Assembly (NCBI GenBank): GCA_038211855.1
Contig: JBBQVE010000003.1
Location: 33,907-97,906, forward strand
Direction of reading: 5' to 3'
Length of the DNA stretch: 64,000 bases
From: Candidatus Saccharimonadales bacterium
GTDB taxonomy: Bacteria; Patescibacteriota; Saccharimonadia; Saccharimonadales; SZUA-47
Of this stretch, positions 17,159-41,022 are shown piece after piece (within the stretch, counting starts at the first letter, position 1; each line of letters opens with the position of its first letter). Below the pieces are notes generated by a model. The model was given only the letters and a program-made list of their open reading frames with translations, did not search any database and had not been told where the DNA came from. Both the position numbers and the translations under genes were made by a program.

Positions 17159-17327
17159 TAAGTTAAGTAGCCCCTAGTAGACGCTCTTAGTACTTTTAGA
17201 CGTTGTGCCGTTTTATGAAAATATATCAGCGCTAGCGAGCAGGGAAGAGTGTATTTGAACCACTTAACACCTTTTGCGAAAGGATCACGAAAATTTTTAC
17301 TTATGTGTAACAGATTCAAACCGCTTA

Positions 17328-17403
17328 TGGTGGGGGTGGATGGACTTGAACCATCGACCAAAGGATTATGAGTCCTCTGCTCTAACCACTGAGCTACACC
17401 CCC
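17328..17403 (-). tRNA. tRNA-Ile2 (anticodon CAU, lysidine-type), CCA encoded
   Basis: Reverse complement GGGGGTGTAGCTCAGTGGTTAGAGCAGAGGACTCATAATCCTTTGGTCGATGGTTCAAGTCCATCCACCCCCACCA folds as a 76-nt cloverleaf. It closely resembles my recollection of E. coli ileX. A Met identity cannot be excluded from sequence alone. Confidence 0.85.
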
Positions 17404-19982: not shown

Positions 19983-20228
19983 GATTCAAGTAAGATTTAT
20001 GGCTTCTCGCAAATAACCACAAACCTTGCCTTCTAGTATACTATAAACTCTTGCCAAAATTCGCGTTTCTTGGAATTGATGTTTGGCAGAGTTTCTGCCG
20101 GTAGCTGCTTTGTCATAGCACGTCCTCTTTCGTTTATGAATAGTACTATATTCCCCTTAAGCTGAGAAAACCGTAAGAATTATTACTTTTTTACCTTTTG
20201 TCGGTCTACTCGTGGTATATTGTCGCTA

Positions 20229-21035
20229 GTGGCTTTCGCAAAATCCAAGTCTGATGTATCTGCCAAAGACTTTTTGGTTCAATTTGATGGTGATATCGAT
20301 GCCGCTATCACCGCCTTGCAATCTGTGAAAGCGGCAGCCTACAAAGCCAAAAAAGTAGCCGATACACCCATCCTCGTTCGTACTGAAGACCTCAAGAAAA
20401 AGTATAAGATTGGTCGTACATATGTTGAGGCGCTCAAGGGCGTTTCGATTGAAATTCACGAAGGCGAATTCATCGCGTTTACAGGGGCGAGTGGCAGTGG
20501 CAAAAGCACACTTTTGCAACTGATTGGTGGTCTCGACAAACCCAGTGATGGCAAAGTCATCGTTGATGGCAACGATATTACCAAACTCAGCGATCGTCGC
20601 CTGTCTATTTTTCGCAATAAAACCATCGGCTTTGTCTTCCAGTTCTTCTATTTGCAGCCATTTTTGCGCCTGCAGACCAATCTTGAAGTTCCGGCTATGT
20701 TTGCCCGTACCAAACGGAGTGTCCGTCAAAAACAAAGTGGGGAACTTGCTAAAGCGGTTGGTCTTGAAGACCGTCTGACGCACCTTCCAAAGGAACTGTC
20801 AGGTGGCCAGATGCAACGGGCCGCGATTGCTCGTGCCCTGCTCAATCGACCGAAGTTGATTCTAGCCGACGAACCAACCGGTAATCTCGATAGCGTCAAC
20901 GGTGAGGCAATCATCAATCTGTTTGAGCAGATTCGCAAAGACTACGGCACGACGATTGTGGTGGTGACGCATGATCCGAAGGTTGCAGCCCGCGCAGACC
21001 GTGAAATTAGACTGCAGGATGGACTGATTATATGA
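20229..21035 (+). CDS. ABC transporter ATP-binding protein (MacB/LolD/FtsE-like) with ~45-aa N-terminal extension
   Basis: Walker A GASGSGKST, Q-loop, signature LSGGQMQR, Walker B ILADEPT. TTG 20220 lies inside a TGGTATATT -10, so GTG 20229 is preferred. The start is uncertain. Confidence 0.85.
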   Translation: MAFAKSKSDVSAKDFLVQFDGDIDAAITALQSVKAAAYKAKKVADTPILVRTEDLKKKYKIGRTYVEALKGVSIEIHEGEFIAFTGASGSGKSTLLQLIGGLDKPSDGKVIVDGNDITKLSDRRLSIFRNKTIGFVFQFFYLQPFLRLQTNLEVPAMFARTKRSVRQKQSGELAKAVGLEDRLTHLPKELSGGQMQRAAIARALLNRPKLILADEPTGNLDSVNGEAIINLFEQIRKDYGTTIVVVTHDPKVAARADREIRLQDGLII

Positions 21036-22939
21036 TTCGATTACGTGACAGTCTCACGCTGGCACTCACGAAGCTGCGTACCCGTAAGGTTCGCTTGATG
21101 GTGACGATTATTGTTTCTGGCTTGTTATTTTGCGGCCTGACAGCAGCTTCTCTGGTAGTGCGCGGCGCCTTCCATAGTATTGATTCGTTTAATAAAGAGG
21201 GCTTTGGTAGCCGTTACATCGTCCAAGGCTTTTCGCAGGGCAACTTCGTAAACACACAGGACGCGAAGATAATTGACAGGGCAGTGGCCATTCAAAAAGA
21301 CCTGATTACCCGCAAAAAAGCTGCTGCCAAAACGCTTGGTGTTGAATATGACGCCAGCACCGAACAGTCGCCAGTTCAGGAGTATGATTACCCGGGTGGC
21401 AAACAGCGGAACCTTGATATGAACCAGCCGGCCGCCCAGCAAGCCGTGAAGGAACTTTCCCCGGTGAAGCCAACAGGTGTCGACGACATGAAAAAGGCTG
21501 CTGCTCCATTTCAGGGCCAAGCCACCTACCAAAGTCAGATATTTACTCCACCCACCAATGGGTCTTCATTGCAGGTCTTGAAGAATGGCAAAGAGACGTA
21601 TGGCGGTGCAACGGCGCAATTTCAAAATGGGCCACCAACCGGTACCGACTCATTCACGACATTATGGACGCTGGCCAGTGGCAAGTTGATGCAACCATTC
21701 CTTTTGAAGGGCAGTACCCTTGACGATAAAGGTGATGGGTCGATTCCCATCGTCGTACCAGTCAGTGCCGCTGAACAGCTACTCAATCTCAAAGAATTAC
21801 CGGGTAGCGCCAAACCAGATGCACGACTGGCTCGCATGAAACTATTGCGCCAGGAAGCAGCACGTCTTACATTTCAAGTTTGTTACCGCAATGGCACATC
21901 GGCTGGGCTCGTCAATACAGCAGTCAGTACCGCTCAACAAGTTGACGAGAATAAAAACAAGAAAGACTATCAAAAACCGGATCTGATCTATGGAATTCCA
22001 GCGCAACCTTGCGGTACGGTCGCAGTCACACGTGACGTGCGTGATGCCGACACCAAAGCACTCGCTGCCAAGCAGGACCAGTTTGATGCGATGTTTGGAA
22101 AAGTGCCAGCGTCAGAACAGACGCTCAATTTCCGCGTTGTTGGTTTATCACCAGATATCGGTGGTGGTGCGGCCTTAGGCGTTTCGCAGGTCGTTTCTTC
22201 TCTGGTGACATCTTCGCTCGGTTCAGGCTGGTTCACACCGCAGGAATACGCCGCCAAAGCCCCGTTGCTTGATACCTTATTTTCATCAGCCGGTGCAGCT
22301 TATGGTTCTCCGCCTTCACTTTATGAAGAATTTGCCACCGCCGATCAAGCCCGTCACTTTATAGATGCCGAAAACTGTCAGCCCGACTATGGCGCGAATG
22401 GTCCATCCGACAAATGTATTAAAGCCAACAAGCCCTTCTCTTTGAACCCCTATGGAAGTAACAGTTTGGCATTGGAAAGCGCCCAGAAAAGCTTTAATAA
22501 GATTTTTAGCATCGCCACGCTGGTTGCCGCAATTATTGCAGCGATTATCATGATGGGCACAGTCGGACGAATGATTGCCGATAGCCGCCGTGAAACCGCC
22601 GTCTTCCGTGCCATAGGTGCCAAAAAGCTCGATATCGCCCAAATTTACGTGCTGTACACCGTGTTACTGGCTGTCCTGATCTGTATTTTCGCCGTGGCCG
22701 TCGGTGTAATAGTGGCCGCCGTGGCCGATCACAAATATGGGCCGCAAGCGACCGTGCAGGCCTTGGTTGCCTATAACTCGCAAGACTTAACGCGTAAATT
22801 TACACTGTTTAACTTCTACATCGTCGACATGCTCCGTTTGGTCGGCTTAATCCTTGCCGCTAGTATAATCAGCTCTGTATTACCTCTGTTCCGTAATCTG
22901 CGCCGCAACCCGATCCGCGACATGCGCGACGATACGTAA
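21032..22939 (+). CDS. ABC transporter permease, FtsX/MacB-type, with a ~450-aa extracytoplasmic domain
   Basis: One N-terminal TM, a long soluble region, then a C-terminal FtsX-like 3-TM bundle (RETAVFRAIGAKKLDI...). ATGA overlap with the ATPase gene. Confidence 0.8.
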   Translation: MIRLRDSLTLALTKLRTRKVRLMVTIIVSGLLFCGLTAASLVVRGAFHSIDSFNKEGFGSRYIVQGFSQGNFVNTQDAKIIDRAVAIQKDLITRKKAAAKTLGVEYDASTEQSPVQEYDYPGGKQRNLDMNQPAAQQAVKELSPVKPTGVDDMKKAAAPFQGQATYQSQIFTPPTNGSSLQVLKNGKETYGGATAQFQNGPPTGTDSFTTLWTLASGKLMQPFLLKGSTLDDKGDGSIPIVVPVSAAEQLLNLKELPGSAKPDARLARMKLLRQEAARLTFQVCYRNGTSAGLVNTAVSTAQQVDENKNKKDYQKPDLIYGIPAQPCGTVAVTRDVRDADTKALAAKQDQFDAMFGKVPASEQTLNFRVVGLSPDIGGGAALGVSQVVSSLVTSSLGSGWFTPQEYAAKAPLLDTLFSSAGAAYGSPPSLYEEFATADQARHFIDAENCQPDYGANGPSDKCIKANKPFSLNPYGSNSLALESAQKSFNKIFSIATLVAAIIAAIIMMGTVGRMIADSRRETAVFRAIGAKKLDIAQIYVLYTVLLAVLICIFAVAVGVIVAAVADHKYGPQATVQALVAYNSQDLTRKFTLFNFYIVDMLRLVGLILAASIISSVLPLFRNLRRNPIRDMRDDT

Positions 22940-22940
22940 G

Positions 22941-22969
22941 TTGACTTTACGACCTCTGTTTGTTACACT
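22941..22969 (+). promoter_or_regulatory. Promoter of tRNA-fMet
   Basis: TTGACT-N17-TACACT with extended TG (TGTTACACT), 17 nt before the tRNA start. It contains ACCTCTGTT, a motif also found at 23124, 25433 and 50027. Confidence 0.5.
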
Positions 22970-22985
22970 AATTTAGCCTAAATAT

Positions 22986-23060
22986 CGCGGGATAGAGCAG
23001 TGGCAGCTCGTGTGGCTCATAACCACAAGGTCGCAGGTTCGAGTCCTGCTCCCGCTACCA
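22986..23060 (+). tRNA. tRNA-Met (anticodon CAU), initiator-like, CCA encoded
   Basis: CGCGGGATAGAGCAGTGGCAGCTCGTGTGGCTCATAACCACAAGGTCGCAGGTTCGAGTCCTGCTCCCGCTACCA forms a 75-nt cloverleaf. The unpaired 1:72 position (C:U) and overall similarity to bacterial tRNA-fMet (CGCGGG...GCTCATAACC...CCCGCAACCA) suggest initiator identity. Confidence 0.85.
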
Positions 23061-23076
23061 AGTTTGAATAACAGAT

Positions 23077-23106
23077 AGAGATTGGTTCCAAAACCAGTCT
23101 CTTTTT
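23077..23106 (+). terminator. Hairpin terminator after tRNA-fMet (part of the repeated L module)
   Basis: AGAGATTGG-ttccaaaa-CCAGTCTCT + TTTT. The 34-nt block 23077-23110 is identical to 24562-24595. Confidence 0.6.
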
Positions 23107-23229
23107 GATTTGATAGTTAATTCACCTCTGTTATTTAAGTTCGAGTCCTGTTTGGTCTTTTTGCTCATGCTTGCATTAGACTCTATGCACGTTGCAAGAT
23201 ATATATAAGACTAAATTCGAGGAGAAGTT

Positions 23230-24423
23230 ATGCCAGAGCTAATGAGCCCAGAGACTCAGGAAGATTTTAAACGGACAATAGGTCGCGTTGAAGGGGTAAC
23301 CGGCTATGAAAGACCAGCAGCATTTGCTCTGGGATTAGCCACTATTGAGGGTGAGGGCGAAGACAAAAAAGTCATCGAAGTACAATACACCCGCAGAAAC
23401 TACGCAGAAAACTTTGGGACAGCTGCAGTATTGGCTGTAGCTACACAACAATGGACAGGCTTAGAGACAGGAGAATTTTTGCTGAGACCTCATCAATTAG
23501 ATACTGTGACTCGTTTGTTTAGGCCATTTTTCGAAAATGGTCTAGTCTTACCAGGACATGCTAATATCGACACACTGATGGCGATGAGAGATGTGCAAGT
23601 TGGCGGATTATTTCCTAAATCAGGTGCGGATAATATCTCAAACCCACGTGTACCAATCTTAGGTGTAATACGCAGCTGGGATGACGAACCAGTCAGTGTT
23701 GCCGACATCTTTCTAAGACTCTATGCACTCTCTGACCGGCACCGCTTGCCAAACACAGCAAATATTGTGCCTGGACGCGATTTTCCAAAGCTACCAAACA
23801 CAGTGATGAGCGAGTCACTTGGTACGTTTAGCGTTGACAGATGGAATGCAATGTCGGAAAGAATCGCCTTTAGGGGCTTATCAACTGCCGTTCGTGGATT
23901 GGATAAATTCCCACGTATGACAGACCATGTGGTGCCAACGGGTGTTAGAATTGCCGACCCAAGCAGAGTACGTCTCGGAGCGCATCTTGGTTCTGGTACG
24001 ACCGTAATGCATGAAGGCTTTGCTAACTTTAACGCTGGTACAGTAGGCGCAAGTATGGTTGAAGGTAGAATCAGCGCTGGCGTACTTGTAGGTGAAGGTT
24101 CCGACGTGGGCGGCGGTGCATCAATTATGGGCACTATGTCAGGCGGTGGTAAAGAAGTCATTAGTATAGGAGAAAAATGTCTCTTAGAGGCTAATAGCGG
24201 AATAGGAATATCATTAGGAGATAACTGTAGAGTCGAAGCAGGCACATATGTAAAGTCGACCACTAAGGTCAAACTACCAAACGGCGACTGGGTAAAAGCT
24301 GATAGACTGTCAGGCCAAGATAATATGATGCTACGCAGAAGTTCTGTCACTGGCGAAGTAGAACTGCTACCAAACGTAGGTACAGAATGGGGCGGTCTTA
24401 ACTCAGTGCTTCATACTAACTAG
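23230..24423 (+). CDS. dapD: 2,3,4,5-tetrahydropyridine-2,6-dicarboxylate N-succinyltransferase, long (Pseudomonas-type) form
   Basis: DKFPRMTDHVVPTGVRIADPSRVRLGAHLGSGTTVMHEGFANFNAGTVGASMVEGRISAGVLVGEGSDVGGGASIMGTMSGGGKEVISIGEKCLLEANSGIGISLGD is a hexapeptide-repeat domain. It is near-colinear with my recollection of long-form DapD. GAGGAG SD. Confidence 0.8.
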   Translation: MPELMSPETQEDFKRTIGRVEGVTGYERPAAFALGLATIEGEGEDKKVIEVQYTRRNYAENFGTAAVLAVATQQWTGLETGEFLLRPHQLDTVTRLFRPFFENGLVLPGHANIDTLMAMRDVQVGGLFPKSGADNISNPRVPILGVIRSWDDEPVSVADIFLRLYALSDRHRLPNTANIVPGRDFPKLPNTVMSESLGTFSVDRWNAMSERIAFRGLSTAVRGLDKFPRMTDHVVPTGVRIADPSRVRLGAHLGSGTTVMHEGFANFNAGTVGASMVEGRISAGVLVGEGSDVGGGASIMGTMSGGGKEVISIGEKCLLEANSGIGISLGDNCRVEAGTYVKSTTKVKLPNGDWVKADRLSGQDNMMLRRSSVTGEVELLPNVGTEWGGLNSVLHTN

Positions 24424-24435
24424 TGTTTTAAAGTT

Positions 24436-24546
24436 CTAGTGTCGTGCGGTAGAGTAAACAACTCCTGCTTGAACCCTATAAAGTTGTAACCATCGAACTA
24501 ACTCGCTAAAGATAAGGTTCCAATTCGAATGTACAAGGGCTACCAA
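24436..24546 (-). repeat. Tail unit U-fMet-1 (att-like module)
   Basis: On the minus strand, TTGGTAGCC (mimic of the tRNA CCA end) opens the frame LVALVHSNWNLIFSELVRWLQLYRVQAGVVYSTARH*. 19/36 aa identical to the unit at 26230-26340, with no indels. Confidence 0.6.
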
Positions 24547-24561
24547 GTGAAAATAAAAGAG

Positions 24562-24591
24562 AGAGATTGGTTCCAAAACCAGTCTCTTTTT
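24562..24591 (+). terminator. Second copy of the L-module hairpin
   Basis: Identical to 23077-23106. Confidence 0.55.
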
Positions 24592-24806
24592 GATTACAAC
24601 GGACTTCCGGGTATATCCCCAGTTCTAAGATTTTAATGAGAAACCTGGGCATCGAGACATGAAACAGTGTTGTTAGTAGGGAAACACTTTATGCACACGG
24701 AAGCCTTAAGTATAGACTAATTGTCAATTTTTCGCAGTAAGCTATGTTATATGATGACCGAATTATTTAGCATATATTGAGAGTACTTAATAATAAGAAA
24801 GCTGAA

Positions 24807-25181
24807 ATGCGAAGCATAGTTTTGAACAAGTCAAGAGTATCCACCGTTATCTCAAAAAGTATCCTTACTATATCTATTATTTTATCAATGATAGGAATCT
24901 CGGTTGTGGCATCACCTATGGCGAGTGCTTATTACGGCTCATCGGTAATGGCCGTTAGTGCACCGGGATGTGGGACGACCTGCCCGAACGGACCGGAATA
25001 CATAATCCCTCAATTCAAAAAAGTATACATGATCTGTTACAAAGACATGACATGGCGATATACCAATGGTCGGTGGTCCAATAGATGGTATCGGGTTATC
25101 CCTGATGGATGGGGCTTTGCTGTTTACACGCCGGCGCCTGCTGTGGCCAATCCAATGTCAGTTGGCTGGTGTAACTACTAG
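24807..25181 (+). CDS. Small secreted Cys/Trp/Tyr-rich hypothetical protein (124 aa)
   Basis: ORF 24777..25181; ATG 24807 taken as the start. Signal/anchor ILTISIILSMIGISVVASPMASA. The mature part carries 5 Cys. A strong terminator follows. Confidence 0.55.
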   Translation: MRSIVLNKSRVSTVISKSILTISIILSMIGISVVASPMASAYYGSSVMAVSAPGCGTTCPNGPEYIIPQFKKVYMICYKDMTWRYTNGRWSNRWYRVIPDGWGFAVYTPAPAVANPMSVGWCNY

Positions 25182-25196
25182 TCAATTTGCAGATAA

Positions 25197-25230
25197 ATAG
25201 AGATTCACCTGCCGTGAATCTCTATTTTTA
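25197..25230 (+). terminator. Rho-independent terminator
   Basis: ATAGAGATTCAC-ctgcc-GTGAATCTCTAT + TTTTT. Confidence 0.7.
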
Positions 25231-25244
25231 TGACACCTATTTTT

Positions 25245-25369
25245 GCAGGTTCGAGTCTTGCTGCCTACTCATTAACAGGTGATTCCTTACGTACTTCATT
25301 AACTATCTTCCACATAGTTATCAGTTCTTGTTTCACTTGGTTCCATTTCGGCTCTGGCGTGGCTACCAA
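25245..25369 (-). repeat. Tail unit U-fMet-2 plus adjacent tRNA T-arm/acceptor copy
   Basis: 25245-25268 GCAGGTTCGAGTCTTGCTGCCTAC copies the tRNA-fMet 3' part. The minus-strand frame from TTGGTAGCC (25369) reads LVATPEPKWNQVKQELITMWKIVNEVRKESPVNE*, 17/34 identical to the unit at 42032-42136. Confidence 0.6.
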
Positions 25370-25484
25370 GTTTGAATATCAGCAAGAGATTGGCCTCAAA
25401 ACTAAACTCTATTATATTTGGTGCAAAAACTGACCTCTGTTTAGAAGATTTCAGTCTTACTCGGTGATCTGATAATATCGATGT

Positions 25485-26225
25485 ATGGAAATACTAGGAC
25501 TGCCCAGCTTTAGAATTGCAGCCAATATAAAAGGTAGTGAAGATAGTAATAAGGTCGCAATCTTAATGCCAGGTCGATTGGATACTAAAGACTATGCCAA
25601 CTTCCTTAGTCATTTAAATTTTCTTTCAATTCAGGGCTTCTATACTTTGGCGATTGACCCACCTGGTACGTGGGATAGTTCTGGTGACTTAAGTATCTTT
25701 ACAACCACCAATTACTTGAAAGTTATTCATGAAATTATCGACTACTTTGGCAATAGACCCACTCTTTTACTTGGCCATAGCCGTGGTGGAGCTACTGCTA
25801 TGCTTGCCTCGTGCAATCCAGCAGTATCTGGAGTTGTAGTAGTTAACTCAGCATTAGGGTCACCTACACCACCAGAGCTAAGTGATATTGAAGATGGAAC
25901 TCTACCTGAATACCGTGATTTACCACCTGGCAATATACGAACCGAGAAAAAGAAACGCTTCAACTTACCCATGGACTATTTTGAAGATGGTGTCAAACAC
26001 GACCCGGAAGGTACATTAGCCAGATTTAAGGGGCCTAAACTTATCGTACATGCAGATAAAGACGAGTTTGAAACCTTAGAGCGGGTTAGTGAAGTGTTCG
26101 ACAGGCTTTCTGAACCTAAAACATTTCTAAAGATTAATAGTACGCACGATTACCGACTTTACCCCGAGGCTATTAAAGCAGTTGAAGATGGACTAGGAAA
26201 ATTTCTAAAAGACTATTTTTACTAA
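25485..26225 (+). CDS. Alpha/beta-fold serine hydrolase
   Basis: 246 aa. Nucleophile elbow GHSRGG, late Asp (HADKDE) and His (STHDY). Confidence 0.75.
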   Translation: MEILGLPSFRIAANIKGSEDSNKVAILMPGRLDTKDYANFLSHLNFLSIQGFYTLAIDPPGTWDSSGDLSIFTTTNYLKVIHEIIDYFGNRPTLLLGHSRGGATAMLASCNPAVSGVVVVNSALGSPTPPELSDIEDGTLPEYRDLPPGNIRTEKKKRFNLPMDYFEDGVKHDPEGTLARFKGPKLIVHADKDEFETLERVSEVFDRLSEPKTFLKINSTHDYRLYPEAIKAVEDGLGKFLKDYFY

Positions 26226-26229
26226 GGTT

Positions 26230-26340
26230 CTAGTCCGCTGCGGTAGAGTAAGTAATAGGCATCACGCCACTAATAACCCCCAGCCAGCGGACTAACTCTC
26301 TACTGATATCGTTCCAATGTGAATGTACTTGGGCTACCAA
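26230..26340 (-). repeat. Tail unit U-fMet-3 (att-like module, last of the array)
   Basis: The minus-strand frame from TTGGTAGCC reads LVAQVHSHWNDISRELVRWLGVISGVMPITYSTAAD*. Its last codons (TACCGCAGCGGACTAGAACC) mimic the tRNA acceptor/T-arm. Confidence 0.6.
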
Positions 26341-26343
26341 TAA

Positions 26344-26372
26344 AAAAAGCCTTATCGAAAGATGGGCTTTTT
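26344..26372. terminator. Bidirectional terminator
   Basis: AAAAAGCC...ATC-gaaa-GAT...GGCTTTTT with an A-run on one side and a T-run on the other. It overlaps the stop of 26371..26823. Confidence 0.6.
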
Positions 26373-26823
26373 ACTTTGTGACTAAATCATTGAGCTGTTC
26401 TAGTGCTTGCTTGAGACCGGACTCCATGCCTCTAAGGTACTGATCTGCCTGTGGGCCGGCTGAGAGTACTTCTGAAGTTATGTTGAGTGTAGTATTGCCA
26501 TCAGTTTCTGTAAATAACACCGTGTGTTGTACTTCAAATAGTTTATTACCCTCTGGATCGAGCGGCGAATTGGTCATGACTAATTTTGCTGGTTCTTCGA
26601 CTACTATGAATTCACCTGTCATCGGCATGATGCGTCCATCCGGTGCTTTAGTATCCACACGCAATTGACCACCCGGCCGCACATCAAACTCACAGGAAGG
26701 AACGCTATACGGGGCTGGCATATACCATTGTTTGAACTGTTCAGGCTGTGTCCAGGCATCCCAGACTGCTTGGCGAGGTGCCTCGAATGTGTATTGTATG
26801 TTTAAGGGTTTATAGTCGTTCAT
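26371..26823 (-). CDS. SRPBCC/AHSA1-domain protein
   Basis: 150 aa. APRQAVWDAWTQPEQFKQWYMP... is typical of Aha1/START-like SRPBCC proteins. Translationally coupled to the ArsR gene (ATGA). Confidence 0.75.
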   Translation of the reverse strand: MNDYKPLNIQYTFEAPRQAVWDAWTQPEQFKQWYMPAPYSVPSCEFDVRPGGQLRVDTKAPDGRIMPMTGEFIVVEEPAKLVMTNSPLDPEGNKLFEVQHTVLFTETDGNTTLNITSEVLSAGPQADQYLRGMESGLKQALEQLNDLVTK

Positions 26824-27131
26824 ACTGAGCCTTTCTTTAAATATTCTTCTAAGCTATTGAACTGCTGGCTCCAATATATCTGGAACGAATTGACCCAGTC
26901 CTCTAACCGCAAAAACGGCTCGGCATTGAGCGCATAAATCCGTTGCTGGGCAATTGGCTGCACTCGTACCAGGCCGGCTTTGTTGAGCGTATGCAAATGC
27001 TTTGATGCCTGGGGCTGGCGTATTTTAAGTAGGGAAGCAACTTCATTCACTGAGCGGGGCTGCTCACGCAACAACTCAATAATCTTGAGTCGATTTGGCT
27101 CGGCTAACGCGTTGAATGTTTTGGTATCCAT
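26820..27131 (-). CDS. ArsR/SmtB-family transcriptional regulator
   Basis: FNALAEPNRLKIIELLREQPRSVNEVASLLKIRQPQASKHLHTLNKAGLV is a wHTH. ATG 27131 sits 6-7 nt after TTGACA-N17-TTATAT. The longer ORF start 27167 lies upstream of that promoter. Confidence 0.8.
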   Translation of the reverse strand: MDTKTFNALAEPNRLKIIELLREQPRSVNEVASLLKIRQPQASKHLHTLNKAGLVRVQPIAQQRIYALNAEPFLRLEDWVNSFQIYWSQQFNSLEEYLKKGSV

Positions 27132-27152
27132 ACAACAAATATAATTCAATGC

Positions 27153-27176
27153 ATATATTCTTGTCAAGGAATATAT
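27153..27176. promoter_or_regulatory. Inverted repeat, candidate ArsR operator
   Basis: ATATATTCTTG-t-CAAGGAATATAT overlaps the -35 of the arsR-like gene. Confidence 0.45.
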
Positions 27177-27228
27177 GTTTTTTTGAAGTGACTCCCCCTT
27201 GGACTCAACATCTAGGTATACTAGTTAT

Positions 27229-28074
27229 ATGCAGATAAATGCATATATAGTGAACGCTTTCACTGCCAATAGTGCTGGTGGCAATGGTGCCGGCGTCGTT
27301 TTGGACGCTGAAAATCTATCAGATCAACAGATGCTCGATATCACGAAAGAACTGGGATTCTCCGAGACAGCTTTTGTGAGTGTGAGTAAAGTTGCAACTT
27401 ACAAAGTTCGTTTTTTTACTTCGACAGAAGAAGTTAATTTGTGCGGTCATGCGACGATTGCAACATGGTCGCTCTTGCATCAAAGAGGTCTTGCGAAAGC
27501 GGGCAACCATATGCAGGAAACACTCGCTGGAATATTAGGAATTGATATTCAACACGACGGCTCAGTGTTTATGCAGCAAACTGAGCCGCTGTTTTTGGAA
27601 ACTGCTCAGGCAAGCGAAGCTGCTGTGGTACTTGGTATAGAAGAGGTATGTATAGATTCAAAGCTCCCAGTTCAGGTTGTTTCAACAGGCTTGAGAGATC
27701 TATTTGTACCGATACGCACAAAGAAAGACTTATTGCGCATCAAACCTGATCTTCCAGCAATGATTACGTTAAGCAAAAAGTATAATGTCACCGGCTTGCA
27801 TGTATTTGCATTGAATAAAGGCCAAATTACGGCTTTTGCACGGAATTTTTCACCGAGGGTTGGCATCGATGAAGAATCAGCTACGGGTACTTCCAATGGA
27901 GCACTACTTTGTTACTTAAAGAACTATGGTAAGTTGCTGCAGACTCAATCGTATTGTATAGAACAGGGTGAATCGATGGGGAACTTATCGTATATTCTTG
28001 GAAAATTTGTTGATGGAAGAGTGTGGGTCGGTGGACAGGCGACCATTCTGAGTCAAAGGTCTATAACCGCTTAG
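27229..28074 (+). CDS. PhzF-family isomerase
   Basis: MQINAYIVNAFTANSAGGNGAGVVL...ETAFV...FFTSTEEVNLCGHATIA fits the PhzF family. ATG 27229 lies 6 nt after a TATACT -10. Confidence 0.8.
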   Translation: MQINAYIVNAFTANSAGGNGAGVVLDAENLSDQQMLDITKELGFSETAFVSVSKVATYKVRFFTSTEEVNLCGHATIATWSLLHQRGLAKAGNHMQETLAGILGIDIQHDGSVFMQQTEPLFLETAQASEAAVVLGIEEVCIDSKLPVQVVSTGLRDLFVPIRTKKDLLRIKPDLPAMITLSKKYNVTGLHVFALNKGQITAFARNFSPRVGIDEESATGTSNGALLCYLKNYGKLLQTQSYCIEQGESMGNLSYILGKFVDGRVWVGGQATILSQRSITA

Positions 28075-28092
28075 ATTTGCTATGATTAAGTT

Positions 28093-29052
28093 ATGAATGA
28101 TGACAAACTGAAACCGATTGAAGATCCAAACATTATCCGCTCCGGAAGGTTGAAAGTAGGCGATGGCCACGAACTGTACTGGGTTGATTGGGGGAACAAG
28201 AACATCAAGAATCCCATCTTTTATATTCATGGCGGTCCGGGCGGCGGTTTCGATAAAAAGTATTTTTTGCGCTTTGACCCTAAGGTACAACGCGTTGTTT
28301 TTCATGATCAACGCGGTTCCGGGCGCAGTACGCCGTTTGCTTCTATCGATCACAATACTTCGCAGGATCTTGTTGAAGATATTACGAAGTTAAAGAATGA
28401 GCTTAGTTTCGATAAAATATCCTTGTACGGTTTTTCGTGGGGTTCAACACTGTCGCTGCTATATGCAATCGCCTACCCCGAAGTTGTTGAAAAGATGTTG
28501 ATTGGCGGCATATTTTTGGCCAGAAAAGTAGATCAAGATTATTATCTGAGAGGCGGGGTCGCTTCGCATTTTCCAGAGGCTTGGGAAGCTTTCACGGCAC
28601 TCGTCCCAAAAAATGAACAGGCAACTATCGCGGAGTACTACAAGAAAAAGATGTTTGGTGATGATAAAGTCGAGTGCGAAAAATTTGCGAAAGCTTGGAT
28701 GATGTACGAGTCTTCGATATTAAAACTAGATTATAGACCGGAAAAAGTCGAGGAAGACCTGGCCGATTTCGCACCCGTAACGCTGGCATATCAAGAAGCC
28801 CACTACATACTTAATGACTGCTTCATAGAAGAAGACTACATTATTAAAAACGCCCATACGTTGCAGGATACACAGATTGTCATCGTGCAAGGACGCTATG
28901 ACTTCATATGTATGCCATCTGCCGCCTACGATCTGAAGAACGCACTCGGTACCAAGGCAACACTACAATTTGTCATGTCGGGACATGATGGCAGCGATAC
29001 GGTGCAACGCTCTGTCAATCAAGCGTACGTGAATATCCTCTGGCCCGCCTAG
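28093..29052 (+). CDS. pip: Proline iminopeptidase (prolyl aminopeptidase, alpha/beta hydrolase)
   Basis: HELYWVDWGNKNIKNPIFYIHGGPGGG...HDQRGSGRS...GFSWGSTLSLLYA...GRYDFICMP are the classic Pip motifs. Confidence 0.8.
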   Translation: MNDDKLKPIEDPNIIRSGRLKVGDGHELYWVDWGNKNIKNPIFYIHGGPGGGFDKKYFLRFDPKVQRVVFHDQRGSGRSTPFASIDHNTSQDLVEDITKLKNELSFDKISLYGFSWGSTLSLLYAIAYPEVVEKMLIGGIFLARKVDQDYYLRGGVASHFPEAWEAFTALVPKNEQATIAEYYKKKMFGDDKVECEKFAKAWMMYESSILKLDYRPEKVEEDLADFAPVTLAYQEAHYILNDCFIEEDYIIKNAHTLQDTQIVIVQGRYDFICMPSAAYDLKNALGTKATLQFVMSGHDGSDTVQRSVNQAYVNILWPA

Positions 29053-29086
29053 TCGTAGCTTGTAGCATCCTCTATACTCTAAAGCA

Positions 29087-29620
29087 GTGAAGAAAAGCAT
29101 AAAAATTATCAACAAAAAGACTCGCTTTATTATTTCGCTCGCGTTAGTGTTTGTCATCGGTGGCATTAGTGGTGTGACGGCTGCTTTTTTAGTGCGTAAC
29201 CACAATCCACAGGTGTTAGTTTGGACAACCGACAAGAGTATTAAGGCTCCTGACGGTCTCGTGAGTTATATTGAAAATAGCCGCAAGGGCGACTGCGAGA
29301 GCTACAAAGGAACAAGCTCTGCGAAGGGGAAGGCGGTGTTTGCGATTTTTGAATCTGCCCAGAATCGGCTCGCCAAAATCAGCTACGGCTGTGGCGATAA
29401 TTTGAGTAGTGAATTCTATGGCTACATATTTGCGGTGCGGACAGATACCAAATGGAAACTTTTTATACCACAGGAGTACCTAGTAAACCTGAAGAGCCTC
29501 AGCGAAAAATGGAGAGGTCCGATCGCACTGCCATCATGCAAATATCTGAATGATAATGACGTTCCTGTTTCATTCGAAAGTCTCTGTGTTGGCACCAACC
29601 ATGAATACATCACACGCTAA
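29087..29620 (+). CDS. Membrane-anchored hypothetical protein
   Basis: ORF with N-terminal TM (FIISLALVFVIGGISGVTAAFLV). No recognisable domain. Confidence 0.5.
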   Translation: MKKSIKIINKKTRFIISLALVFVIGGISGVTAAFLVRNHNPQVLVWTTDKSIKAPDGLVSYIENSRKGDCESYKGTSSAKGKAVFAIFESAQNRLAKISYGCGDNLSSEFYGYIFAVRTDTKWKLFIPQEYLVNLKSLSEKWRGPIALPSCKYLNDNDVPVSFESLCVGTNHEYITR

Positions 29621-29680
29621 ATATTATAAAATCAAAATAGGTATTTACAAATAGCATAACCCTGTTATACTTTGGGGGTT

Positions 29681-29800
29681 ATGAAACGATATACACCGCT
29701 ACAAAATGTAATGACCACAAACCCAGTGTTTGGCGGCTCTCTTGCAATTTGTGTTTCTGCCAAAGGAAATACAGCTGGCATATCGGACTCATGTAGATAA
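29681..29800 (+). CDS. Candidate leader/small ORF (39 aa) upstream of the MFS gene
   Basis: TGTTATACT -10 at 29663-29671, GGGGG, then ATG 29681. Product MKRYTPLQNVMTTNPVFGGSLAICVSAKGNTAGISDSCR. A weak terminator follows. Confidence 0.3.
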   Translation: MKRYTPLQNVMTTNPVFGGSLAICVSAKGNTAGISDSCR

Positions 29801-29827
29801 AAATATCTTTTCTTACATCGCGATATG

Positions 29828-29848
29828 CCTCCACCTCGGAGGTTTTTT
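29828..29848 (+). terminator. Weak hairpin + T6 between the leader ORF and the MFS gene
   Basis: CCTCC-acctc-GGAGG + TTTTTT. ATGCCTCC (29825-29832) can alternatively pair with GGAGGCAT (29870-29877). Confidence 0.4.
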
Positions 29849-29943
29849 AATAGCAAAAATCAATCACATGGAGGCATCTCGGGGCTTAGGAATCTAAGTA
29901 ACCCATTCATCTCACTATTAACTAACGGAAAGGGGTCTACAGA

Positions 29944-31116
29944 ATGGACCACCGCTATAAGGAAAACGCCAAGTGGCTGATGTACATCGCACCATTTCGC
30001 GATCTGTCGGTTAGTGCCGCCTACCTCGTCCCCTTCTTTTTGCAGAGGGGGTTGAGCCTGTCGCAGATCTTCTTGCTGCAATCAGTCTTTTCGATCTGTT
30101 TGCTGCTGTGGGAACTGCCGAGTGGTTATTTGGCTGACACGTACGGGCGCGCTTTGTGCCTGAAGCTGAGTCTACCGCTCAACGGTGTTGCAATAGCACT
30201 ATATGGCCTCAGCAGCCACTTTTGGCAGTTCATGTTGTGTGAGCTGGCGCTGGCGGTTGCGAGTGGCTTTGCGAGTGGCACAGACACAGCGCTCCTGATG
30301 GATTCGCTCAAGGCTGACGGCCGAGACAACGATTTTGTCAGGTTGAGTCAGCGTATGAACGCGCTGAGATTTGCTGCAACGGCAGCTGGTTTACCGGTGG
30401 CAGTCTTGCTTGTGCATTTCGTGAGTCTCGGCTCCACATTGGTGGCCGATGGACTGCTCTCGGTTGCGGCGACGGTCTTCGCACTCAAATTAGTCGAGGC
30501 GCCTCGTTACGTCAGTCAAGAAGCAATCAGAGCTTCGGCTTGGCACGCTGCCAAACAGCTTGGACGCAATGTTGAAGCTCGCTGGTTATTGGTCTTGACG
30601 ACAGCACTTAGTACGGCAACGTATCTGGGGTTCTGGTTGACGGCGTCATACTACAAAAGTGTCGGCGTGCCGCTGGTGCTCTTTGGAGTTTTACTCGGTG
30701 TTCGTAGCCTATGGAAAGCCTGGCTTTCGCATCGTTTTACGCAAGAGAAACATCTCGAACGTAGCATGATGACGTACGCTGCGCTGGCTGGTCTGACGTT
30801 TGTTGCGATGGCAACGTACCAGATCTGGCTAATTTGGTTAGTGCTTGCTCACGACGTTGTGCAGGCCTTGCAAGGACAACCACTAGTCGCCAAACTGAAC
30901 GTTCATATGGCGCACGAATTCCGTGCCACTATGAACAGTTTGGTCAACCTCGTCCAAAGACTGGTGTTTGCTGTGGCTGGTCCCGTTGTGGGGCTGATTG
31001 CAGATAAAGCCGGCCTCGGTTGGGGCTTTCTGGTCACTGGTGTAATGTGCAGCGTGATGGCCTTCCTGGCTATCGCAAAACTACACACACTTCACACGCT
31101 CAGTGATGTGAGATGA
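29944..31116 (+). CDS. MFS transporter
   Basis: 390 aa, about 12 hydrophobic helices, with the motif ELPSGYLADTYGRA (MFS motif A-like, loop 2-3). Confidence 0.8.
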   Translation: MDHRYKENAKWLMYIAPFRDLSVSAAYLVPFFLQRGLSLSQIFLLQSVFSICLLLWELPSGYLADTYGRALCLKLSLPLNGVAIALYGLSSHFWQFMLCELALAVASGFASGTDTALLMDSLKADGRDNDFVRLSQRMNALRFAATAAGLPVAVLLVHFVSLGSTLVADGLLSVAATVFALKLVEAPRYVSQEAIRASAWHAAKQLGRNVEARWLLVLTTALSTATYLGFWLTASYYKSVGVPLVLFGVLLGVRSLWKAWLSHRFTQEKHLERSMMTYAALAGLTFVAMATYQIWLIWLVLAHDVVQALQGQPLVAKLNVHMAHEFRATMNSLVNLVQRLVFAVAGPVVGLIADKAGLGWGFLVTGVMCSVMAFLAIAKLHTLHTLSDVR

Positions 31117-31121
31117 AACTG

Positions 31122-31152
31122 CCCGAGGGGTCACATATCCCTCGGGTTTTTT
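31122..31152 (+). terminator. Rho-independent terminator
   Basis: CCCGAGGG-9 nt-CCCTCGGG + TTTTTT. Confidence 0.7.
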
Positions 31153-31156
31153 CTTT

Positions 31157-32998
31157 CTAGTTCGTATTGTCTTTTTTGTAGATAGTGCCATCGATTAGTA
31201 GAGCAGAGATAGAATAGCCATGGCAACCATTCGCACCGCAGCCGGTTGCCGCATAGGCATATTGCGTCGAGCTAGCTGTGGCACCAATCGTGAAGTTACT
31301 ATTGGATAACGTTAGATTCGGCATGTTAGTTTTGCGCCAGCTGCTGTTACTGAAATTTACAAGCGTCGGGTAATTGCCGTTATGATTAGAAGTGTACTCA
31401 TCGAGCTCGGCCTGTAGTCTTGAGACATCATCTTTTACCTTACTATCTGCTGAGGAGCCGGATGAAGAGCCGGCGCCACCAAGGAATTCGGCTGGGTCGA
31501 TGCCGAGTTGCTTCAGAACATCCTCAAGTTTGATCGTCCCGGCAGGCGTTTTGGTATTGATGCTGCCACTGAATGGTTTAGCGTTTAGGGTCACCTTTAC
31601 ATTGTATGGATTGTCGGTACTTTTGCCATCGACAGTGAGGTCGGCGCTTGTAATAGTGGTCTTGATGTTCGTCTTTAAGTTGAAAAGGACGTCTGTTTTT
31701 CCGGCCGCATCGTAGCCGTGAACAAAGAGCGTAATGTCATCGCCACCATTATATTTTTGGCCGACGTCAACATAGGAATTTTTATTGGTATCGTCAGTAA
31801 AGCGTAATTTATATACGAGCTTGTATTTGGTACCTATCCACATGTCGAATGTTTGTGTATCTTTAATATTTTTGCCGCTATCTTCGCAATTTTTTTCGGC
31901 AGATTTTTTGCCGTCTGCAGCAGTGGCTGAATCATAGAATGGCAGTTTTTTGTAAGCTGCAGTCCCCATCTCGGTATCAATTAAATCTTTGCAGTAACTC
32001 ACAAGGTTCGCATTGTTAATGCCGACGGTGTAGTGGTAGGCCGAAACGCCATCCACACTTTCTTTGCCAACAAAACTACGACGTTCAAAGACTGCTACTT
32101 TTGGATCGGCCGTAAAAACACGCTTGGCGGTGATGCTAGTAGCCGTATTGGTAAGCTCGGCGATATCTGCAGCAGTCAAGCTGTCTTTTTTGGTTGATGT
32201 CAGGTCACCAAGGCCGAGTTTCTGGTAGTAATCACTGCTGATCGTGATCCACTTGCCATCAAACTTCGAGATACCAGGAATTTGTGAATCAAGACCAAGC
32301 GATTTAAAGCCGTTAAGCTGTAGGTATGTCGTGGGAAAGGCTTGACCTTTGATAACCTGGCCAATAAAGTTCAGGCTGTAATTTTGCTCGGTTTGACCAG
32401 TAGCTTTGGCCTTTATGACAAGACTGCCATTCGCACCAGAATCATCAAATTTAGTGCCGAGTGTGCCGTTGAAGGTTTCGCCTTGAAAAGTGCCGGTAAC
32501 TGATGCAGAGATATCGGACTTCTTGAAGTTTTCAAGGGAGTCTTTTTGCGATGCATTGTTCACAAGTGCACTCAGGGCTTTGCCAGAACGGGTTAGGCCA
32601 TTGCTCCAGACGTTTTCAGGCTTGTTTGGCAACACATAGCCAAAGACAACGCCACCAGCGATCAGTGCAACGACGATGCCGCCAGCAAGTGAAAGCAGTA
32701 GTGGCTTCTTGTGTGATTTTTTTTGCGAATTGAATGACATAGCTTGAATCGGTGTAGTTGGCGGCACATAACCCGGCATACTGATAGGTGCAGCTTCCAT
32801 TGCAGGGTCAGGCAGTGGTGTTGGAATCGGATCCATTGATACGATAGGTTCCGGCACTGTCGGTGTTGCGGGCTCAGTAGGCAGTGGTGCGATTGTAGTA
32901 TGCTCATTCATTTGAGTTGATGCAGGAGGAGCTGGTTGGTTGGGCACTCCCGCCGTAGTATCAGGTTTTGGCTCAGGGGCATAGACAAAAGGGTCCAT
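31157..32998 (-). CDS. Large surface protein: Pro-rich cytoplasmic N-terminus, single TM, ~490-aa extracellular region
   Basis: 613-aa ORF. TM LLLSLAGGIVVALIAGGVVFGYVL. No recognisable catalytic motif. Confidence 0.6.
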   Translation of the reverse strand: MDPFVYAPEPKPDTTAGVPNQPAPPASTQMNEHTTIAPLPTEPATPTVPEPIVSMDPIPTPLPDPAMEAAPISMPGYVPPTTPIQAMSFNSQKKSHKKPLLLSLAGGIVVALIAGGVVFGYVLPNKPENVWSNGLTRSGKALSALVNNASQKDSLENFKKSDISASVTGTFQGETFNGTLGTKFDDSGANGSLVIKAKATGQTEQNYSLNFIGQVIKGQAFPTTYLQLNGFKSLGLDSQIPGISKFDGKWITISSDYYQKLGLGDLTSTKKDSLTAADIAELTNTATSITAKRVFTADPKVAVFERRSFVGKESVDGVSAYHYTVGINNANLVSYCKDLIDTEMGTAAYKKLPFYDSATAADGKKSAEKNCEDSGKNIKDTQTFDMWIGTKYKLVYKLRFTDDTNKNSYVDVGQKYNGGDDITLFVHGYDAAGKTDVLFNLKTNIKTTITSADLTVDGKSTDNPYNVKVTLNAKPFSGSINTKTPAGTIKLEDVLKQLGIDPAEFLGGAGSSSGSSADSKVKDDVSRLQAELDEYTSNHNGNYPTLVNFSNSSWRKTNMPNLTLSNSNFTIGATASSTQYAYAATGCGANGCHGYSISALLIDGTIYKKDNTN

Positions 32999-33079
32999 CT
33001 TTTTAAGTCCTTTTTAAGTTACTGCTTTTAAGCCCACTATAGCATAAGCTTTATCTGTACGATAGGGGCGTGATTACCT

Positions 33080-33973
33080 CTAAATAATTGTGCTTAAAAC
33101 ACGATGGGCTGATTCGACGCTCACCATGCTACCAGCGGCAAGTTCTACAAGCTCTCCATCCATTTGCATCAACGTGTCGTGCATCGTTTTGAATTCAAAT
33201 TTCTGCAGACTTCGCACCGTTTTTGGCTTGGGTTTTTTGGCAACGGCAGCGCGGAGCAGGCGTTGCGTCAACTGGAATTTGTGGTTACTGGGTGAGACGA
33301 TAATCTCGAACTGTCCATCATTTGGCAATGATTTTGGGGCAAAGGTCAGGATTTTTGCCATGAGGTATATATTCGTGAACAGTAGATTATCTAATTCAAG
33401 CACTTTGTCATCGTGATCTATCTTGAATGATTCAGTTTTTCGGTAAAGCCGTAGCACCTGCAAAAATTCTCTGACGACATGTAGCTTGTAATCGGCAAGT
33501 TCTTTAGCGAGCGCCGGGGTCAGGCCGAGACCAACGTAAGAGTGCGCATAGTATGTATTCGTTTCCTGATCGTCTTTGGTGGTCGTGATGCGAATGAGAT
33601 CGAAGTGTCTTATTCTTCCGGAAATAATTGCCTCCGCCAACGGGCGATGGTGAACGGCACGACTATGGTCATTGGCATTGCCGGCGGGTAAGACTGCACA
33701 GACGGCCTTGGGATTGCCAGCGCTCATGACACCATTGATAACCTCGTTATAACCACCATCGCCACTCGAAGAAATAATCAACGGTCGCTCACTCGAAGAC
33801 GCCATTTTTTGAGCCAGTTCACGAGCATGTCCAGCATACTCAGTGGGAACACACATAGTTTTTACATCAGGCAAGCACGCCTTGAGCTGTGTGCGTAGTT
33901 CCTCAGCCAGCTCCTTGCTATTGCCTGAGCTCTTCGGGTTAAATATAATGTTGATTTTTGTAAACTCAGCCAT
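33080..33973 (-). CDS. Diacylglycerol-kinase-family lipid kinase (YegS/DagK-like)
   Basis: INIIFNPKSSGNS...LIISSSGDGGYNEVINGV...AVLPAGNANDH fits the DAGK catalytic domain. ATG 33973 lies 10 nt after a TATACT -10. The ORF-track start is GTG 34003. Confidence 0.75.
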   Translation of the reverse strand: MAEFTKINIIFNPKSSGNSKELAEELRTQLKACLPDVKTMCVPTEYAGHARELAQKMASSSERPLIISSSGDGGYNEVINGVMSAGNPKAVCAVLPAGNANDHSRAVHHRPLAEAIISGRIRHFDLIRITTTKDDQETNTYYAHSYVGLGLTPALAKELADYKLHVVREFLQVLRLYRKTESFKIDHDDKVLELDNLLFTNIYLMAKILTFAPKSLPNDGQFEIIVSPSNHKFQLTQRLLRAAVAKKPKPKTVRSLQKFEFKTMHDTLMQMDGELVELAAGSMVSVESAHRVLSTII

Positions 33974-34009
33974 GTCAATAAGTAGTATACCCTTGATATT
34001 CACTTACGT

Positions 34010-34699
34010 ATGAACGAATATGAAGGCATGAGCAAGATGCGTGATGCTAAATCGGATATATTGAAGCACGACATTCATGTACTGGATGATCCACATGGCA
34101 GTTGGCGAAAAAGTCTGCTGCATTTTTCCATTGTTATCATTTTCATTGCTGCAGTCGGCTACTTATCACGAGGCTGGATAAGAAACACTGTCATACCAAA
34201 AGGTGCGGTAGCGGTGGAGGGCAGTAGCTTCGAAAAACAGATTGCCTCGGTGCAAAATGAGCTGCAGCATCCCTTTACAGCGCTTGGCTACAAGAAAACT
34301 GACGTGATCCCAACAAAATGCACTCTCACAGAAGCCAAGCTCTTAGCAACCAAGGTGGACTGTGAGTATAAGATCCACGCATACGGGGAAGTCTCACGAG
34401 ATCCAGCCACAATAAAAAGAGTGGACGCTGCATCGGCCAAGATCGAGGATTATCTCAAAAATAATGGTTGGAAAGGAGAGTATTCGGACAGCGGCCAGTA
34501 CGTCTCGCTCCACAAGATCGTCACTGCGATTAATCAAGGCAATGACTCTCTGCCAGATGCATCGTACTTTAAACAAGTAGGGGACATGTACTGCGCCTTT
34601 TCAACTGCCGAAGCATTTAACTCACCAAAACCTGCCGCCAAGTCTACAGTGCTTACCTGTGACAAAGACTATTATTTCTTGGGCGTGCCGACTTTTTAG
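34010..34699 (+). CDS. Membrane-anchored hypothetical protein
   Basis: ORF with TM LLHFSIVIIFIAAVGYL. No recognisable domain. Confidence 0.5.
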   Translation: MNEYEGMSKMRDAKSDILKHDIHVLDDPHGSWRKSLLHFSIVIIFIAAVGYLSRGWIRNTVIPKGAVAVEGSSFEKQIASVQNELQHPFTALGYKKTDVIPTKCTLTEAKLLATKVDCEYKIHAYGEVSRDPATIKRVDAASAKIEDYLKNNGWKGEYSDSGQYVSLHKIVTAINQGNDSLPDASYFKQVGDMYCAFSTAEAFNSPKPAAKSTVLTCDKDYYFLGVPTF

Positions 34700-34728
34700 G
34701 GCTACTCATTCATACTTAGCGCGTTAAG

Positions 34729-35040: not shown

Positions 35041-35086
35041 ACATCTATTGTCTCACGCCGTAAGAAACAAAGTAAGCATAATCTTA

Positions 35087-35115
35087 TTGACAAAAGCGCT
35101 AATATGCGCTATTAT
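35087..35115 (+). promoter_or_regulatory. Near-consensus sigma70-type promoter of an orphan small transcription unit
   Basis: TTGACA-N17-TATTAT. The spacer contains AGCGC-taatat-GCGCT. Confidence 0.5.
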
Positions 35116-35271: not shown

Positions 35272-35275
35272 GCCA

Positions 35276-41019: not shown

Positions 41020-41022
41020 GGT

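Follow-up and report, generated by a model that had tools for sequence, protein, structure and literature searches.

We analysed a 64,000-nucleotide stretch of DNA from a Candidatus Saccharimonadales bacterium (contig JBBQVE010000003.1), referred to here as the window, in which three genes stand in tandem behind an initiator-like tRNA-Met gene (tRNA-fMet). Probably, this array is the product of site-specific accretion, and its three units are recombinase-less derivatives, each with one gene, of a family of small (~4.5 kb) Saccharimonadales integrative elements, a member of which resides at a second tRNA-Met gene of the same window. An earlier interpretation made from the letters alone (the sequence-only reading) had proposed a serine-recombinase element with a tRNA 3' end as its attB site. 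This central proposal is supported by homologies between the cassette ends and the recombinase gene, by an open reading frame (ORF) that integration splits, by a circular form in a relative, and by a displaced tRNA terminator. From these observations we infer that the recombinase made the junctions and that the array grew by repeated events at the tRNA site.

Organization of the array

The tRNA-Met(CAT) gene at positions 22986-23060 (+ strand; ARAGORN, Rfam) has a 5'-CGCGGG start and a C1:U72 mismatch, features that, as read from the sequence, are initiator-like. Its 3' end, GCTACCA(A), is the core on the attB side. The core sequence GCTACCAA occurs four times in the array, at 23054, 24539, 25362 and 26333, with the first copy (23054-23061, +) situated at the 3' end of tRNA-fMet. 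The four cores delimit three units of 0.8-1.5 kb, each of which consists of an L module, one gene on the + strand, and a tail of ~120 nucleotides. Searches for tRNAs, cores, repeats and ORFs all bear out this order, which the sequence-only reading had claimed to recur three times behind tRNA-fMet.

A recombinase gene that spans its attachment site

The window contains a resident, integrated 4.5-kb element of low GC content (37604-42135), whose attB is an elongator-type tRNA-Met(CAT) gene (37527-37603, +; ARAGORN, Rfam). It comprises a recombinase gene, four other ORFs and a tail. The large serine recombinase (LSR), in its integrated form of 513 amino acids (37560-39101, - strand), matches PF00239 (Resolvase, 3.8e-29) and PF07508 (Recombinase, 1.2e-4), and its best model scores, which are below cutoff, are for CcrB and XisF. 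The tRNA in antisense supplies the last 13 codons of the gene. The element is bounded by the cores GCTACCA at 37597 and CCTACCA at 42129, and its tail (42014-42135, +; subtype B, see below) ends in GCCTACCA and is conserved also in contig L003 and in the L113 circle. The tRNA-fMet and tRNA-Met genes are 14.5 kb apart, and the recombinase gene is 11 kb downstream of the array. A tblastn search of the window detected no other LSR copy and only stump and tail fragments in the array, in agreement with the earlier claim that the only intact serine recombinase is next to tRNA-Met.

Homologues of ~513 amino acids end in ...NSDLVAxTGxEPVTxGL, the antisense of the 3' half of elongator tRNA-Met, and in L001 and L003 the recombinase 3' end likewise adjoins an elongator tRNA-Met gene. 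Four homologues of 532-534 amino acids (P0007, P0008, P0016 and P0025) end in ...LVGMVESNWNQIKRELITMWQIVNEIRKESPVTV instead. When the resident tail (to 42135) is joined to the L end (from 37604), the result is a 533-amino-acid ORF ending in ...LVGVIGTNWNQIKRELIAMWQIVNTVREETTVKV*, and the same join in L003 produces an ORF of equal length (533 amino acids). These junction ORFs match the C-termini of the four longer homologues. One of them, P0007, is 74% identical to the window recombinase and is found on four contigs (from the three ENA assemblies ERZ27309394, ERZ27309396 and ERZ28656156 and one Logan assembly, SRR6747781), all of which are the same 4,499-bp sequence in circularly permuted form. 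The terminal overlaps of these contigs (141, 141, 55 and 30 nucleotides) have the sizes expected from assembler k-mers. Reads must cross the tail-core-L junction, and the molecule is therefore a circle or, less likely, a tandem repeat. Together, the junction ORFs, the 532-534-amino-acid homologues and the 4,499-bp circle place attP inside the recombinase ORF, ~33 codons from its end, and therefore the L module and the tail are the P' and P arms of attP.

These relationships suggest the following mechanism. In the parent element, the LSR ORF runs across its own attP and has 532-534 codons in the circular form. Recombination between attP and a tRNA-Met 3' end, through the common core GCTACCA, would detach the last ~33 codons. 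In the integrated state, the gene body (...GFGT..SYLL.K..) lies beside the tRNA and forms the L side, and the detached ...NWNQIKRELI..* forms the tail at the far end of the element; the gene then ends in 13 codons from tRNA antisense instead (513 amino acids). Each cassette of the array retains the two attP arms, as L stump and tail, together with one outward-reading gene that has a promoter-like region. Such a split ORF explains why there are "repeats" at both ends of the cassettes.

The C-terminal 13 to 20 residues of integrated recombinases (among P0001-P0120) form classes, such as ..LVAATGIEPVTLGL, ..LVGVAGLEPATNRL, ..LVIPRGIEPLLPG and others, which resemble different tRNA 3' ends translated in antisense. 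Should this hold, the C-terminus of a recombinase would report the target tRNA of each copy. In L003 (3982-6029, -) the B-type tail is present twice, as a copy truncated directly before the core (6029-5910) and a complete copy (4106-3982), with 1.9 kb and two genes between them; the duplication with this interval implies insertion into, or recombination within, the tail.

L modules as recombinase 3' stumps

The L modules form a 57-nucleotide family, located at 23054-23110, 24539-24595 (91%) and 25362-25418 (79%). A 26-nucleotide hairpin core, AGAGATTGGTTCCAAAACCAGTCTCT, has exact copies at 23077 and 24562 (chance expectation 0), and the 34-nucleotide block at 24562-24595 is the same as in the first module, as had been noted previously. 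The first stump, L1 (23062-23160, +), reads KETGFGTNLYLLFK on the minus strand. L2 occupies 24547-24632 (+), and L3 (25370-25450, +) is the most degenerate of the three and has lost the hairpin.

We compared each module with the recombinase 3' end and scored the alignments against 2000 dinucleotide shuffles per module. L1 scores 37 (shuffles 15.1 +/- 2.4), which 0 of 2000 shuffles reach, and L2 scores 26 (15.3 +/- 2.5), which is reached by 4 of 2000. For L3, the score of 14 (14.9 +/- 2.4) is reached by 1422 of 2000. The homology that the sequence-only reading had proposed for all L modules thus stands for L1 and L2, whereas L3 is tied to the recombinase through L1 only. The blocks common to L modules and recombinase, AATAACAGATA and GGTTCCAAAACC, correspond in antisense to the YLL.K and GFGT codons, which are among the best-conserved C-terminal residues in an alignment of 34 homologues.

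In an alignment of L1-L3 with five full recombinase 3' ends (window, L001, L003, L113 circle and L117), all three stumps carry a 32-nucleotide deletion beside the core and a 12-nucleotide deletion between the two blocks. Because of the 32-nucleotide deletion, the GFGT and YLL codons are one frame off: the YLL block is shifted relative to the L-V-A frame across the core, in the same way in L1, L2 and L3. The frame IKKRLVLEPIS..LVA, previously described as still open, is consequently not the homologous one. Two deletions and a frameshift in common imply that the stumps are copies of one already non-coding end. Judged by their sequences, they would therefore derive from one dead end rather than from three independent recombinase losses, and their shared indels point to one recombinase-less backbone that spread, or else to gene conversion among the junctions.

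Tails as the detached recombinase C-terminus

A point overlooked in the sequence-only reading is that the tails, too, are recombinase coding sequence, namely the ~33 codons past attP. Tail 1 (24423-24546, +) ends in core copy 2 and reads LVALVHSNWNLIFSELVRWL...STARH* in antisense; tail 2 (25246-25369, +) ends in core copy 3 and reads LVATPEPKWNQVKQELITMWKIVNEVRKESPVNE*; and tail 3 (26223-26340, +) ends in core copy 4 and reads LVAQVHSHWNDISRELVRWL...STAAD*. A tail unit does recur at the end of each cassette, as proposed, but it is not uniform: tails 1 and 3 belong to subtype A and are ~80% alike, whereas tail 2 belongs to subtype B and resembles the resident tail. Translated in antisense, tail 2 has 70.6% identity to residues 498-531 of P0007, the recombinase of the circular form. 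In a tblastn search of the window with P0007, tail 2 (E = 1.4e-10) and the resident tail region (42139-42035, E = 5.6e-10) are detected, and the A-type tails give E = 0.027 (tail 1) and E = 0.11 (tail 3). An R-end motif, GTTCCAWTTCG-N11-GSCTACCA, is retained across cassettes and genomes.

The L modules and tails could instead be host regulatory or structural repeats, such as terminators, genes for small or tRNA-like RNAs, or repetitive extragenic palindromic (REP)-like sequences, that have nothing to do with recombination. The hairpin and T-run of L1 (23077-23110) and L2 score as an intrinsic terminator, and T-arm-like pieces occur at tail starts. However, in the 64 kb the modules are limited to the array and the recombinase element. 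An nhmmer tail profile detects only 24423-24546, 25246-25369, 26223-26340 and 42014-42135, the L profile only 23054, 24539, 25362 and 37597, and a blastn comparison of the array with the whole window yields one outside match, from tail 2 (25298-25350) to 42065-42117 (83%). We rejected the tail as a structured RNA, since it has no match to an Rfam family and RNAalifold finds zero consensus base pairs among eight tails. As the tails also translate into the recombinase C-terminus, a host-repeat origin is largely refuted and very improbable.

T-arm-like fragments (GGTTCGAGTC.. or AGTTCAAAGCC..) open the B-type tails, directly outside the recombinase stop. They are found in the window at 25245-25265, 23139-23152 and 42017-42035, in L107 at 2970 and 4545, and in L108 at 1600; fragments of this kind are also present between cargo genes in related arrays. 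We do not rely on a 5-bp outward shift of GGTTC between the tails and the tRNA T-loop, considered under the attP/attB zinc-ribbon-motif model (PMC3783163), because an alignment of TTCGAAT to the T-loop with a 1-nucleotide offset fits equally well.

The insertion site in related genomes

The sequence that follows the array (26341-26378, +) is homologous to the terminator located directly 3' of tRNA-fMet in a relative, L103 (979-kb scaffold). The alignment scores 39, compared to 14.0 +/- 2.2 for shuffles, and 0 of 2000 shuffles reach it. The array is thus a precise insertion between tRNA-fMet and its native terminator, which marks the B' side, and the L1 hairpin with its T-run now occupies the position of that terminator.

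Comparison at the same tRNA in relatives, which had been suggested as a check, reveals other genes, one cassette or none. In L106, whose FtsX is 66% identical, unrelated genes follow tRNA-fMet. L103 carries a single cassette, in which a 248-amino-acid gene is closed by an A-type tail with a decayed terminal core. In L014, a terminator follows tRNA-fMet at once, corresponding to an empty site.

Related units exist in other genomes. In L108, a dapD homologue (coding sequence 74% identical) is preceded by GGGCTACCTAG and followed by an extra 112-amino-acid gene, an A-type tail end 84% identical to tail 1, and a core. L107 has dapD and a related hydrolase gene in a tight co-oriented array with only eroded module scraps. 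In another Patescibacteria genome (L020, 713-3573), a recombinase-less 2.9-kb unit of three co-oriented genes lies behind elongator tRNA-Met and closes with GTTCCATTTCG...CGCTACCA, which corresponds to the R-end motif, and a terminator.

Among annotated plasmids and phages, no relative of the recombinase exceeds 32% identity, and a metagenome scan with the recombinase alignment and generic catalytic-domain patterns yielded only distant LSRs with at most 34% identity. Exact-protein look-ups with the window recombinase and its FtsX-like neighbour gave no match, and a genome scan with the FtsX protein gave no relative. In viral-contig scans, the R-end pattern had two matches, rejected as chance matches within a coding ORF, and the A-type tail start had none.

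Growth and present state of the array

Several findings weigh against accretion by a recombinase of this family. The only contig from the same strain, L102 (a Logan contig from sample SRR19962015, identical to 23083-24591), begins and ends in the 34-nucleotide repeat and therefore reflects an assembly break rather than a circle. The four circular contigs of P0007 may not all derive from independent samples. We recovered no full-length recombinase at tRNA-fMet that has an A-type tail, and the A-type tail in L117 has a different core. In the elements we recognised neither a recombination directionality factor nor a replication gene. By codon position, the differences between tails 1 and 3 are flat (14, 11 and 13; small numbers), which fits neutral decay. 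Also, canonical LSRs do not recombine attP-like sites with each other (PMC3783163), and the internal junctions of the array are attP-like (P + P'), so that excision of single cassettes is not expected in the textbook model.

Under that model, only the outer attL/attR pair could excise, and with a directionality factor this would free all three genes as one 3.3-kb circle; movement of a single cassette would require relaxed site choice. L3, the most decayed stump, is farthest from the tRNA, which would weakly fit insertion of newer units beside the tRNA.

Concerning L117 (1700-1950, -), its recombinase (P0029, 519 amino acids) belongs to a sister subfamily and is joined to the A-type tail via ATACTTGACCAGCG and not GGGCTACCAAG, and this tail is read in a frame other than the conserved NWN frame. 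Either the target site differs or the copy is frameshifted.

Accretion leaves two accounts of how the array came to its present state. In one, three full elements integrated in succession, each lost its recombinase by deletion, gene conversion homogenised the junctions, and the array is now immobile. In the other, capture is active and integron-like: minicircles consisting of attP and one gene are excised and re-inserted in trans by the resident recombinase (37560-39101) at tRNA-Met genes. The first is tenable, although we lean against it, and the second is rather unlikely.

The indels of the stumps bear on both accounts. Independent deletions are not expected to stop at the same nucleotides three times, and the derived deletions and frameshift common to the three stumps suggest spread of a recombinase-less backbone, which would favour capture. 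However, gene conversion within the array explains the shared indels and the identical 34-nucleotide block equally well. The loss of the L3 hairpin and of the stump coding frame speaks against capture, and the frameshift of the stumps and the flat codon-position differences of the tails speak for a fossil. In the tails of full elements, second codon positions vary least (for example 10, 6 and 16 differences by position; small numbers), and this pattern fits coding constraint only where the recombinase is present.

The attachment sites point in the opposite direction. Although the flanking tails differ by ~20%, the four cores are perfect, and cores and R-end motif are better conserved than their surroundings; the L stumps carry their deletions next to the core. 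Capture would also account for the common subtype of tail 2 and the resident tail, for the core and T-loop motif shared by both tRNAs, for the R-end motif that cassettes of different genomes have kept, and for the units at tRNA-Met in L020 and L108 that have the same ends and no recombinase. On the other hand, in L107 the same kinds of genes are tightly packed with eroded module scraps only, and in L103 the core at the end of the tail has decayed; both speak for a fossil. For capture, the attP-like internal junctions pose the difficulty that such sites are normally not LSR substrates (PMC3783163).

A broader proposal, which we consider doubtful, is that the Saccharimonadales possess a gene-capture system in which an attP-spanning recombinase gene is accompanied by minicircles, each of attP plus one gene, that are stacked and reshuffled in trans at tRNA-Met genes. 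If this were true, exchange of the conserved 33-residue C-terminus for a tRNA-encoded one could be an integration-dependent switch of recombinase activity or directionality, and the system would be a functional analogue of integrons that relies on an unrelated enzyme and operates in bacteria whose genomes are very small.

Cargo genes and neighbouring features

The first cargo gene (23230-24423, +) encodes a DapD-like hexapeptide acyltransferase of 397 amino acids, with a THDPS_N domain and hexapeptide repeats; a match to DapD_actino is below cutoff. The second (24807-25181, +) encodes a predicted secreted protein of 124 amino acids that has a signal-peptide-like N-terminus and matches no family, and it has its own terminator hairpin at 25190-25232. 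The third (25485-26225, +) encodes an alpha/beta hydrolase of 246 amino acids. These identities agree with those given previously, except that the second protein, described as Cys-rich, contains only four cysteines.

A promoter-like stretch follows the L1 hairpin and is common to L1 and L3. The sequence TTTTGCT(C/T)ATG(C/G)TTGCA, which looks like a common promoter element, is upstream of cargo genes in several arrays (window 23160-23185; L107 at 1165, 1692 and 2995; L108 at 325).

The suspicion that the cargo genes are AT-richer holds, as the GC content is 0.40-0.47 across the array and 0.49-0.52 directly upstream (20500-23000). It is still lowered (0.41-0.47) past the array at 26341-30000, where there are AHSA1-like, ArsR, PhzF-like and further genes and no recognisable cores or tails. 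This region may be a part of the island that is older and has eroded fully. A copy of GCTACCAA at 45665 was rejected as an element end because this position falls within ftsH.

In the resident element, the region 40711-41985 (-) includes a gene for a 320-amino-acid protein with weak matches, below Pfam cutoffs, to HipA-like kinases, and an adjoining 102-amino-acid ORF. The two possibly form a toxin-antitoxin pair with a stabilising effect on the element. In neither the resident element nor the circle does Pfam recognise replication or transfer genes.

The tRNA-fMet and elongator tRNA-Met genes adjoin each other and are divergent in three other Patescibacteria genomes (L014, 1662-2310; L018, 3-537; L020, 121-712). 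In the window, these genes (22986 and 37527) are 14.5 kb apart and co-oriented, which suggests a rearrangement, possibly through att-like sites. After a third tRNA-Met(CAT) gene (17328-17403, -) comes GGTTTGAATCTGTTAC, similar to the start of an L module, and ~50 nucleotides beyond it is GTGGTTCAAATACAC...GCTAGCG, which resembles a T-arm and acceptor scar. The region (17240-17403, -) may be an old integration scar.

Implications and comparison with known systems

The locus and its relatives define small recombinase-bearing circles that target tRNA-Met genes and leave single accessory genes behind. They also provide a rule for annotation: the C-terminus of an integrated recombinase would read out its target tRNA, and homologues of 532-534 amino acids mark circular or tandem copies. 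If the exchange of the C-terminus affects activity, it would constitute a compact control of serine-recombinase directionality. The att sites are possibly useful for genetics in Patescibacteria. In the literature searched, there is no description of such mobile elements in Saccharibacteria or other bacteria of the candidate phyla radiation (CPR).

The sequence-only reading did not recognise the architecture as one already described, which is too strong. Tandem accretion at the 3' ends of RNA genes with integrase-less derivatives is already known, and the closest case is the ssrA islands of Dehalococcoides (McMurdie et al. 2011, PMC3146451). These islands are in tandem and have a CcrB-like LSR, and many are without an integration module and were read as cis-mobilisable. 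As in the window, they lie downstream of the gene for a small RNA, direct repeats of that gene's 3' end mark their borders, and a reverse-strand LSR stands beside attL, with some units lacking an integrase; CcrB is likewise among the best models, below cutoff, for the recombinase studied here. The target here is tRNA-Met or tRNA-fMet rather than ssrA, and the repeat is 8-9 nucleotides long rather than 20 bp. The six-gene integration module (DsiA, DsiB), a second small serine recombinase, and ParB, RecF or Mom homologues were not found here, and the units are single-gene and 0.8-1.5 kb long, unlike the multi-gene ssrA islands. For the ssrA islands, no recombinase ORF spanning attP is described.

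A second precedent is the accretion of cis-mobilisable elements (CIMEs) of the ICESt1/ICESt3 type (PMC5704250), which have lost integration genes, keep attL and attR, and lie in tandem at one site, through decay and further integration. Similarly, the array units are without integration or transfer genes and have one cargo ORF each. Classical CIMEs are found beside an integrative and conjugative or integrative and mobilisable element that has a tyrosine integrase, and conjugation moves them in cis (PMC5704250). In contrast, the array has no autonomous element, the candidate helper is at another tRNA, and no transfer genes are seen.

Tycheposons of Prochlorococcus (bioRxiv 10.1101/2020.12.28.424599) carry a lineage-specific tyrosine recombinase in 910 of 937 integrase-carrying elements, along with hallmark replication genes. 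They share with the present locus a position next to tRNA genes, tandem elements with partial-tRNA separators, degenerate remnants, at one end an integrase that faces inward, and small cargo modules in a streamlined genome. Unlike tycheposons, the elements studied here use a serine recombinase, and neither in the resident element nor in the circle does Pfam find hallmark genes for replication or mobility (primase, helicase and others).

An attP within coding sequence, such that integration alters the product, is a feature of the partitioned integrases of the Sulfolobus spindle-shaped virus (SSV) type and of integration-dependent immunity in mycobacteriophages. Both involve tyrosine integrases, and in the mycobacteriophages the split gene is the repressor. 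In the family described here, the split gene is that of the serine recombinase itself, and only its last ~33 codons are exchanged.

The array resembles an integron in that single-gene cassettes are stacked in one direction, with a conserved recombination-site-bearing unit at each 3' end. However, IntI, attI and Pc are missing from the array and its surroundings (ORFs of 20000-40000), the eight tails analysed with RNAalifold show no attC-like fold, and the cassettes have promoter-like regions of their own. What is unusual here, compared to all of these systems, is that the recombinase ORF spans attP and exchanges its C-terminus upon integration, that single-gene units keep both fragments of the gene, and that the host belongs to the CPR.

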